This document shows positions 59,205 through 61,228 of a stretch of DNA of 64,000 bases, piece after piece. Every line of letters begins with the position of its first letter. Positions within the stretch are counted from its first letter, which is position 1. The notes below the pieces were generated by a model. The model saw only the letters and a list, made by a program, of their open reading frames with translations. It was not told the DNA's origin and searched no databases. Both the position numbers and the translations under genes were made by a program. The DNA comes from Escherichia coli (lineage in GTDB: Bacteria; Pseudomonadota; Gammaproteobacteria; Enterobacterales; Enterobacteriaceae), in NCBI RefSeq assembly GCF_044324785.1, contig NZ_CP172127.1; one strand, given 5' to 3'.

Positions 59205-60290
59205 ATGAAGACGTATCCTTTGCAAAGCCTGACGCTTATTGAGGCGCAGCAAAAGCAGTTTGCGCTGGTGGACACGATTTGCCGCCATTTTCCCGGCAGC
59301 GAGTTTCTTACCCGCGGGGATTTGGGCTTAACGCCGGGGCTGAATCAACCGCGCATTACCCAGCGAGTGGAACAGGTGCTGGCTGATGCATTTCACGCAC
59401 AGGCTGCGGCGCTGGTACAGGGCGCGGGTACTGGCGCGATCCGTGCGGCGTTGGCGGCTTTGCTCATACCGGGGCAGCGTCTTCTGGTGCATGACGCGCC
59501 TGTTTACCCGACGACTCAGGTCATTATTGAGCAGATGGGGCTGACGCTTATTACTGCTAATTTCAATGACCTGTCGGCACTTAAGCAGGTCGTCGAAGAG
59601 CAACAACCGGATGCGGCTCTGGTGCAGCATACGCGCCAGCAGCCGCAGGACGGGTACATTCTGGCAGATGTGCTGGCAACGTTGCGCTCGGCTGGCGTTC
59701 CTGCATTAACCGATGACAACTATGCGGTGATGAAGGTAGCGCGAATTGGCTGCGAATGCGGGGCAAATGTCTCGACTTTTTCCTGCTTCAAGCTGTTTGG
59801 GCCGGAGGGTGTTGGCGCGGTGGTAGGCGATGCCGATGTTATTAGTCGGATTCGCGCCACGCTCTACTCCGGCGGCAGCCAGATTCAGGGCGCTCAGGCG
59901 TTGGAAGTCTTGCGTGGGCTGGTGTTTGCGCCAGTGATGCACGCGGTGCAGGCGGGGGTATCTGAACGGTTGCTGGCCTTGCTCAACGGTGGTGCAGTTC
60001 CGGAAGTGAAAAGCGCCGTCATTGCCAATGCACAGTCGAAGGTGTTGATTGTCGAGTTTCATCAGCCGATTGCCGCCAGAGTGCTGGAAGAGGCGCAAAA
60101 GCGCGGTGCCTTGCCTTACCCGGTTGGTGCAGAGTCGAAATATGAAGTTCCGCCACTTTTTTATCGACTTTCCGGAACGTTTCGCCAGGCGAATCCGCAA
60201 CTCGAACATTACGCGATTCGTATTAACCCAAATCGCAGCGGTGAAGAGACGGTGCTGCGGATTTTGCGTGAGAGTATTGCGAGTATTTAA
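59205..60290 (+). CDS. yhfS: putative PLP-dependent aminotransferase-fold protein YhfS
   Basis: 361-aa ORF MKTYPLQSLTLIEAQQKQFALVDTI...; matches my memory of YhfS. Confidence 0.88.
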   Translation: MKTYPLQSLTLIEAQQKQFALVDTICRHFPGSEFLTRGDLGLTPGLNQPRITQRVEQVLADAFHAQAAALVQGAGTGAIRAALAALLIPGQRLLVHDAPVYPTTQVIIEQMGLTLITANFNDLSALKQVVEEQQPDAALVQHTRQQPQDGYILADVLATLRSAGVPALTDDNYAVMKVARIGCECGANVSTFSCFKLFGPEGVGAVVGDADVISRIRATLYSGGSQIQGAQALEVLRGLVFAPVMHAVQAGVSERLLALLNGGAVPEVKSAVIANAQSKVLIVEFHQPIAARVLEEAQKRGALPYPVGAESKYEVPPLFYRLSGTFRQANPQLEHYAIRINPNRSGEETVLRILRESIASI

Positions 60291-60349
60291 TGCTGGATAG
60301 CCCCGTTCGGCAATCAAGCTAAATTCAGCGCCGGACGGTCCCCGCAACG

Positions 60350-60395
60350 CGCCAGCATCGCCGGATGCGATGCTGGCGCATCTTATCCGGCCTAC
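60350..60395. repeat. REP element (palindromic units; 12-bp stem GCGCCAGCATCG/CGATGCTGGCGC plus ...CTTATCCGGCCTAC)
   Basis: Perfect 12-bp inverted repeat around a CCGGATG loop and a canonical REP tail between convergent yhfS and frlR. Confidence 0.6.
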
Positions 60396-60397
60396 GG

Positions 60398-61129
60398 TTA
60401 ATGTCTTTTATTATCAATCGTTAAGGTGATGCGGTTGGCGCGGCAGAAGAGTTCGGAGACGTGCACCGGTTTGTTATTCTGATCAAAGGCGATTTTGCTG
60501 ATGCGAAACAGCGGTTCGCCCAGTTCGCATTTCAGCCATTTTGCCTGCGGGCGGGTGGCGGCAAAAATATCGATAGTCTTTTTATCGCTGACCACTCGCG
60601 TGTCAAAACGCTCCTGAAATAACTGATAGGTGGAGCTTCCTTCGACGTAAATCTCATCAAAGTCAGGATAACGCGACAGCGGGATCCAGGAACTATCAAT
60701 AAACAGCGGCTCTTTATCGAGATACATCACCCGGCAAAGATGGAACACTTCGCTGTTACCGGGGATGTTCAGCTTTTCGCAAAACGGCGCGGCGCTGACC
60801 CGTTCCTGTTCGATCACTTTCTCTTTCGTCGCCTTGCCTTGTGAGACGCCAAAATCGGTAAAACCACTGACAGTAAGCAGGGCGTTTTCAACTTTCTGGC
60901 TTTGTACAAAGGTGCCTTTGCCCTGCCAGCGGATCAGTACGCCGTCTGCCACTAAGTCGCTGATGGCTTTGCGAATGGTAATGCGGCTGACGTTATATTG
61001 CGTACAAAGCTCGTTTTCGGTAGGGATCTGTTGCCCGGCCTGGTAAACCCCCTGCGCGATATCATCCAGCAACCGCTGGCGGACGGTAGCGTAGAGGAGT
61101 TGATGAGAGTAGCGGTCCGTAGCTGACAT
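60398..61129 (-). CDS. frlR: GntR-family repressor of the fructoselysine operon
   Basis: Start set at MSATDRYSHQLLYATVRQRLLDDIAQG (243 aa; GntR HTH plus UTRA domain); the ORF track extends 22 codons upstream. Confidence 0.9.
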   Translation of the reverse strand: MSATDRYSHQLLYATVRQRLLDDIAQGVYQAGQQIPTENELCTQYNVSRITIRKAISDLVADGVLIRWQGKGTFVQSQKVENALLTVSGFTDFGVSQGKATKEKVIEQERVSAAPFCEKLNIPGNSEVFHLCRVMYLDKEPLFIDSSWIPLSRYPDFDEIYVEGSSTYQLFQERFDTRVVSDKKTIDIFAATRPQAKWLKCELGEPLFRISKIAFDQNNKPVHVSELFCRANRITLTIDNKRH

Positions 61130-61197
61130 AATCGACCCTGAAATAAAGAATGAATTACACGGATTATAGGGTCGTTTTCCGGCAAGTAACAGCATGT

Positions 61198-61221
61198 TGG
61201 CGTGAAGATGCTCACGCCAAC
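61198..61221 (-). terminator. hairpin TTGGCGTGA-AGATGC-TCACGCCAA between frlD and frlR
   Basis: 9-bp perfect inverted repeat read directly; may attenuate read-through from frlABCD into frlR. Confidence 0.4.
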
Positions 61222-61228
61222 GTTATGC

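Follow-up and report, generated by a model that had tools for sequence, protein, structure and literature searches.

For glpR in glpEGR and fucR in fucPIKUR, internal promoters give the distal regulator gene a basal expression that is independent of the operon promoter. Hairpins inside operons can serve a different end, and both the REP hairpins between malE and malF and the intercistronic hairpins of Rhodobacter puf shield the upstream mRNA from 3' exonucleases. The spacer between frlD and frlR of Escherichia coli can be compared with both kinds of system. As with glpR and fucR, the repressor gene stands last in its cluster, and a short spacer with a sigma-70 -10 element of its own precedes it; unlike theirs, the promoter of frlR is predicted and unmapped. 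As with other stabilising hairpins at intercistronic positions or 3' ends, the frl hairpin is stable, lacks a U-tract and separates structural genes that are strongly inducible from a distal gene required at another level. It differs from malE-malF in being unique sequence and not a REP, and its stabilising role is putative. Within the frl system itself, the sole study of regulation characterised only the frlA promoter, where the published FrlR operator FrlO is GTCATGTTAC, described as GT-N6-AC, and it is silent on the frlD-frlR spacer (Graf von Armansperg et al., 10.1101/2020.01.13.904318). We found no description of a frlR promoter in the searchable literature. Our sequence analysis shows an operon junction of an ordinary kind, though conserved, in which a stem-loop is followed by a predicted dedicated frlR promoter and a ribosome-binding site (RBS). 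A composite junction of three conserved modules (stem-loop, sigma-70 frlR promoter and short leader) is probably the best explanation of its features, and what is new here is limited to the unmapped frlR promoter and the hairpin within the known frl system.

The window, i.e. the whole stretch of 64,000 nucleotides of E. coli DNA that was analysed, carries the frl genes on its minus strand (Table 1). Its frlD-frlR region is 97% identical to that of K-12 (best match 99.3%), and of 5426 complete E. coli genomes only 3299 have the region. An upstream in-frame ATG at 61195 would lengthen the frlR reading frame to 60398-61195 (265 aa). An N-terminal extension of FrlR from this codon was rejected, as the codon is GTG in K-12 and elsewhere no start codon, and Phytobacter has an in-frame stop.

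Table 1. Features of the frlD-frlR junction in the window (position 1 is the first letter of the window; RNA letters give the sense strand of frl).
Feature	Position	Strand	Remarks
frlD	62014 to 61229	-	Stop codon TAG at 61231-61229; annotated in E. coli genomes
frlD-frlR spacer	61130-61228	-	99 nt; sense strand GCAUAAC-GUUGGCGUGA-GCAUCU-UCACGCCAAC-AUG-CUGUUACU-UGCCGGAAAACGACCC-UAUAAU-CCGUGUAAUUCAUUCUUUAUU-UCAGGGUCGAUU-AUG (final AUG is the frlR start)
RNA stem-loop at the frlD 3' end	61196..61221	-	GUUGGCGUGA-GCAUCU-UCACGCCAAC; perfect 10-bp stem
Block (A/G)TGCTGTTACT just 3' of the hairpin	61185..61195	-	Nearly invariant; doubles as an imperfect, U-rich hairpin tail
Weak -35-like hexamer GTTACT	61190-61185	-	16 nt from the -10 hexamer; 3/6 consensus positions
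TATAAT, -10 hexamer of the predicted frlR promoter	61163..61168	-	Invariant in 17/17 sequences
Second inverted repeat	61133..61174	-	Sense CGACCCU (61174-61168) / AGGGUCG (61139-61133); judged incidental
Predicted frlR 5' UTR	61130..61156	-	27 nt; deduced from the position of the -10 hexamer
Translation-initiation block UCAGGGU	61141-61135	-	TCAGGGT in 17/17 sequences; Shine-Dalgarno AGGG at 61139-61136
frlR	61129-61127 (ATG start codon)	-	Product 243 aa

A scan of species-representative genomes gave 16 orthologous frlD-frlR loci (from E. coli, Phytobacter, Kosakonia, the uncultured Enterobacteriaceae UBA3516, Citrobacter, Franconibacter, Atlantibacter, Pantoea and Mixta), every one with frlD, then a spacer of ~100 nt and then frlR, and the resulting spacer alignment holds 17 sequences from about eight genera. 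Four more distant loci, from Serratia, Sodalis, Pseudomonas sp. and a metagenomic contig, were added (FrlR 64-73% identical), and the order of frlD, a spacer of 84-123 nt and frlR was kept in 20 of the 20 orthologous loci examined. The blocks that are invariant or nearly invariant in the 17-sequence alignment are the hairpin stems, CTGTTACT, AAA, TATAAT and TCAGGGT. As a neutral yardstick from the same taxa we used the fourfold-degenerate sites of frlD and frlR, only 4 of 132 of which (3%) are invariant, compared to 33 of 108 spacer columns (31%); among E. coli genomes the spacer hardly varies. The frl clusters of Pantoea and of the Pseudomonas-like loci are without the epimerase gene frlC (frlA-frlB-frlD-frlR) and lie in different genomic neighbourhoods, yet the spacer architecture is kept. 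At the border of the spacer, frlR codons 2-4 show unusual conservation at their synonymous positions. In the RNAalifold structure the end of frlD (GCCUGGUA, 61232-61242) is paired with the beginning of frlR (UGCCAGC, 61115-61129), so that the whole spacer is enclosed. This pairing is uninformative because every base involved is an invariant coding position.

The stem-loop starts 7 nt past the frlD stop codon, with arms GTTGGCGTGA and TCACGCCAAC at 61196-61205 and 61212-61221 around a loop of 6 nt, and as sense-strand RNA it has a folding energy of -20.3 kcal/mol (z = -5.6). A hairpin with a 9-bp stem had been proposed at this place; it is real and goes beyond chance, but the 9-bp arms lie at 61197-61205 and 61212-61220, one position away from the start given for them, and the full stem has 10 bp. 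Perfect hairpins of at least 10 bp are about 40-fold in excess in the window (about 10 distinct ones against 0.27 expected in Markov-simulated sequence). The sequence of this one is single-copy in the window, and the 47-nt segment with its 3' arm occurs at one place per genome. The common E. coli allele has two further base pairs at the hairpin base. Across the 17 orthologous spacers 94% of the cells of the hairpin pairing are paired, and compensatory double changes are found in three of its pairs (UA to CG in seven sequences, GC to AU in five and UA to AU in one). The covariation score was reached by none of 500 shuffles and is also above those of all slid registers. Single-sided changes, read on the sense strand, amount to about 10 G-U cells (roughly six events) against one A-C cell, an excess that points to an RNA helix in the sense-strand frl transcript and not to a palindrome in the DNA.

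The CRP core consensus is TGTGA-N6-TCACA, and the top of the E. coli stem (CGTGA-GCATCT-TCACG) fits it at 4+4 of 5+5 positions, which would make the hairpin a DNA palindrome for a dimeric protein such as CRP and not an RNA structure. We regard this reading as extremely improbable. Besides the large excess of G-U over A-C cells, the two Phytobacter arms shift jointly to lower-affinity bases (CATGA/TCATG), the right half is missing in Citrobacter, Atlantibacter and Pantoea, and conservation is strongest at the base of the stem, GTTGGC/GCCAAC, which lies outside the CRP core. The centre of the palindrome would also fall at about -52.5 from the predicted start, a non-standard position for activation by CRP. 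A CRP site in the hairpin top was rejected on these grounds, with the GTGA-N6-TCAC of E. coli not conserved and the arms co-varying toward weaker bases, and we retain the RNA stem-loop.

The hairpin is also not a member of the REP/BIME class, because it is single-copy, and a permissive E-value Rfam scan of 60200-62100 gave no match within the spacer. A REP-like palindromic element does lie at 60329-60392, between the convergent genes yhfS and frlR, with a perfect 10-bp hairpin (60351-60377) inside it and a sub-threshold Rfam match to naRNA4 (33.8 bits, gathering score 59.5). Short GC hairpins follow the stop codon in Serratia, Sodalis and the Pseudomonas-like loci too, but these distant ones cannot be told from shuffled sequence (z -0.7 to +1.2), and we therefore make no structural claim for those loci. 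One hairpin-damaging deletion was seen within E. coli, a loss of 1 nt from the 3' arm in E. coli O157:H7 SS17, whose frlD contains an internal stop and carries a pseudogene annotation; constraint seems to have been relaxed here as the operon decays.

Like an intrinsic (Rho-independent) terminator, the frl hairpin is a GC-rich stem-loop located a few nucleotides past a stop codon and conserved as RNA, and in the window it has the stem that such a terminator has, shortly past the end of frlD. Unlike intrinsic terminators, frl hairpins have no U-run. A U-run directly after the stem is present in 0 of 21 orthologues, the tail being (G)CUGUUACU, and the window tail AUGCUGUUACUU falls short of the U-tract of an intrinsic terminator. 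A terminator scan of 60300-62100 found no terminator-like site, and the scan did not call the Citrobacter and Phytobacter hairpins either. The K-12 allele received a marginal call, with five T in the eight nucleotides that start 2 nt after a 13-pair stem, because its two additional base pairs place the tail GCTGTTACTT within reach of the stem. Given the missing U-run and the scan results, we do not file the hairpin as a canonical intrinsic terminator; as a terminator it would at best be weak and leaky.

The hairpin would most likely act on transcripts as a leaky terminator and/or as a barrier to exonucleases, and so set the frlABCD 3' end. The frlABCD transcript would fold at this point into a stable GC-rich stem-loop without a proper U-tract, which may halt only a fraction of the polymerases and/or block 3'-to-5' exonucleases, so that the 3' end of the frlABCD RNA would be both defined and stabilised, and frlR would be insulated incompletely. 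RNA-seq of ETEC shows that frlR rises together with frlB, frlC and frlD (PMC7483508), so the insulation of frlR is at best partial, or else the frlR promoter is inducible. The original prediction that frlR is insulated from frlABCD read-through finds partial support: it gains from the hairpin being conserved as RNA, but it is weakened by the missing U-tract, by the scan that made no call in the window and by the co-induction in ETEC.

Directly after the stem-loop follows what would be a sigma-70 promoter of frlR, with a weak -35 element, a 16-nt spacer, a perfect -10 hexamer and a predicted transcription start about 61156 (MG1655 3504025) that is deduced from the position of the -10 hexamer. 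The hexamer TATAAT is found in Serratia and Sodalis as well, with TATACT in the two Pseudomonas-like loci, and the distance from the -10 element to the frlR ATG is 31-35 nt in all loci (33-35 nt in the four distant ones). Perfect TATAAT hexamers number 7 in the 64-kb window (both strands, 128 kb), compared to 18.1 expected from dinucleotide shuffles. The distance from GTTACT/ATGACT to TATAAT is a constant 16 nt in the 17 sequences, and the only variant of the -35 block, ATGACT in three taxa, matches 4/6 positions and is nearer to TTGACA. Serratia has TTGGTA and Sodalis TTGGTT at 18 nt from the -10 element. A consensus promoter scan made no call at this site because GTTACT fits the -35 consensus at only 3/6 positions. 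Set against the 3% of invariant neutral sites, the 31% of invariant spacer columns make the frlR promoter well supported by conservation. That frlR may have its own promoter had been suggested earlier from the inverted repeat next to its ATG; the suggestion is borne out by conservation and not by experiment, and its strongest support is the -10 hexamer, invariant at a fixed distance from the ATG, which had not been spelled out.

It is very unlikely that an internal promoter is lacking and that a single frlABCDR transcript, with frlR at its end, is the sole source of frlR expression, the spacer elements being devoted to RNA processing or stability. A table in a bioinformatics paper does give frlA, frlB, frlC, frlD and frlR as a single unit (PMC4448311), the co-induction of frlR with frlBCD in ETEC fits a common transcript (PMC7483508), and the poor -35 element and the promoter scan without a call speak for it too. 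A single transcript leaves unexplained, however, why, in taxa with saturated neutral sites, the exact sigma-70 -10 consensus has kept both its sequence and its spacing to the ATG, and why the -35 block varies only towards TTGACA. Mapped 5' or 3' ends for frl were not found in the accessible supplements of Cappable-seq, SMRT-Cappable-seq, Term-seq and dRNA-seq papers. We favour a frlR promoter of its own, which would supply the repressor basally and independently of the frlA promoter, itself controlled by CRP, sigma-32 and FrlR.

Other promoter-like sequences in the region were set aside. A sigma-32 promoter CTTG...CCCTATAA was rejected, its 8-nt spacer being too short for the sigma-32 consensus. 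On the plus strand, antisense to frlR, there are sigma-70-like matches at 61103-61132 (ATGAGA-18-CATAAT with TG) and 61123-61151 (CTGACA-17-AAGAAT), two compared to 1.3 expected in a scan of 1.8 kb and two compared to 0.1 in a scan of 300 bp of K-12. Both were rejected, since they are antisense, use E. coli-specific bases at the frlR start (the second relies on an E. coli-specific ATGTCAG start) and are hardly more than the 1.3 expected.

Transcripts from the predicted promoter would have a short leader of 27 nt, with an invariant and rather weak RBS (AGGG) ahead of the frlR ATG; in the distant orthologues a related RBS block, A(A/G)GGT(T/G)G, precedes the ATG. The downstream arm of the second inverted repeat is this Shine-Dalgarno region, and its upstream arm abuts the -10 hexamer. 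The original prediction had drawn on this CGACCCT/AGGGTCG repeat, which does exist (61133-61139 and 61168-61174), but its gap is 28 nt and not 27 and it is no better than shuffles; a 7-mer repeat at a 28-nt gap is not unusual. It extends to 15-nt arms at 80% complementarity, and the 61-nt segment that holds it folds with z = -1.8. Among the 17 sequences the repeat is intact only in those of E. coli, Phytobacter, Kosakonia and UBA3516. Its helix is 81% paired, with an A-U pair broken in 10/17 and a C-G pair in 6/17, and a double change is seen in only one pair, where it is common to five related sequences.

As RNA, this repeat could act in translational insulation, in that the CGACCCU of a read-through frlABCD-frlR RNA would hide the frlR RBS, whereas the RNA from the internal promoter, without the upstream arm, would be translated. 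The upstream arm is indeed located upstream of the predicted start, and the one double change keeps the arms complementary (CGACCCU/AGGGUCG in E. coli, CAACCCU/AGGGUUG in Phytobacter, Kosakonia and UBA3516). In the latter three the GGG of the RBS is also paired more firmly in the long RNA than in 150 shuffles, and in a second clade complementarity is found in another stretch, AAUCAACCC/GGGUCGAUU, likewise upstream of the predicted start. Against this stand the duplex energies between the upstream-only segment and the RBS, which compared to dinucleotide shuffles give p = 0.07-0.13 in E. coli, 0.33-0.37 in Phytobacter and 0.6-0.75 in the second clade; outside E. coli the complementarity of the upstream segment to the RBS has p values of 0.2-0.8 in most taxa. 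The GGG is mostly paired even in shuffles (median unpaired probability about 0.1), the RBS of the short E. coli transcript is also largely paired, and the broken A-U and C-G pairs count against such a helix as well. Neither partition-function folding nor duplex energies were significant against shuffles beyond what the repeat itself guarantees. Sequestration of the RBS by the second repeat was rejected on this basis and is, in our judgement, quite improbable. As a regulatory element the repeat does not hold up, with duplex energies within the range of shuffles and the pairing broken in 10/17, and it looks like an incidental product of chance.

The -35 region was considered also as a possible site for FrlR. 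In most E. coli, K-12 and E69 among them, an FrlO-like GT-N6-AC decamer, GTGCTGTTAC, lies after the hairpin at 61195-61186 and overlaps the -35 element. It agrees with FrlO at 8/10 positions, GT and AC included (shuffle p = 0.03 with GT..AC kept, 0.086 for any 8/10 match). It differs from FrlO in its place, FrlO being located downstream of the start site at the frlA promoter and the spacer decamer over the -35 element, in not being fully conserved in other genera and in being broken in the window. The window's own decamer is ATGCTGTTAC, in which the GT is lost, and no FrlO match of at least 8/10 was found within the spacer. The right half of the decamer, GTTAC, is nearly invariant across genera, and the left half GT is present only in E. 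coli and Serratia. The difference traces to position 61195, where K-12, E69 and O157 carry G; the window allele (the sense-strand A in CAACATGCTG) is rare, and of 3286 E. coli genomes only 12 match the 47-nt segment with it exactly. With A at 61195 the hairpin base loses two pairs, the GT of the decamer is broken and a non-conserved in-frame ATG is created.

Autoregulation of frlR is possible and weakly supported. In the form that we weighed, FrlR would bind a GT-N6-AC operator over the -35 element and repress its own promoter, and frlR transcription would rise once fructoselysine-6-phosphate releases FrlR; we hold this to be a tentative and rather doubtful reading. It agrees with the 8/10 match of K-12 and E69, with the near-invariance of GTTAC, whose single variant ATGAC reads on the opposite strand as GTCAT, the remaining half of the published operator, with a Serratia sequence, GTGATGACAC, that adjoins the -35 element of that locus, and with the co-induction of frlR and frlBCD in ETEC (PMC7483508). 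However, the GT left half is absent outside E. coli and Serratia, the window allele gives no match of at least 8/10 in the spacer, and the number of spacers with GTCAT/ATGAC, 4 of 21, is about what chance would give. The -35 element and the hairpin tail could also account for the block. Moreover, the frlA promoters of 11 genera conserve only GTCAT/GTTAT and not GT-N6-AC, which means that the true FrlR operator is poorly defined. The earlier proposal of possible autoregulation can thus draw on the common allele with its 8/10 match to FrlO, but not on the left half, which is unconserved in other genera, nor on the window allele, which is without the GT.

At the frlA promoters, GT-N6-AC is present only in E. 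coli and Sodalis, and the GTCAT/GTTAT conserved across the 11 genera lies at about +8. The CRP site and the extended -10 element TGTTGTTATATT of the frlA promoter are invariant in nine enterobacterial genera and not in the two Pseudomonas-like loci. The nine close FrlR orthologues that were translated have nearly identical DNA-binding domains, and as GT-N6-AC is unconserved all the same, the true operator may have to be defined differently.

Hairpin base and tail, -35 element and putative FrlR operator may form a three-way overlap after the hairpin that couples FrlR occupancy, read-through and the firing of the frlR promoter, and the G-to-A change at 61195 would then be a natural variant in regulation by which FrlR dosage is reset. 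We consider this unlikely; if it were true, the 61195 allele would touch the same trait as the repeated selection of frlR loss-of-function in mouse-gut evolution.

The junction represents routine operon architecture and changes no general concept. FrlR sets the speed at which E. coli switches on the use of fructoselysine, and loss of frlR function is reported as an adaptation that arises repeatedly in the mouse gut (PMC9509342, PMC6731689). That frlR very probably has a conserved promoter of its own behind a conserved hairpin refines this circuit, in that the supply of repressor would not simply track the expression of the operon, and the frlD-frlR junction is useful for the annotation, modelling and engineering of the frl system.
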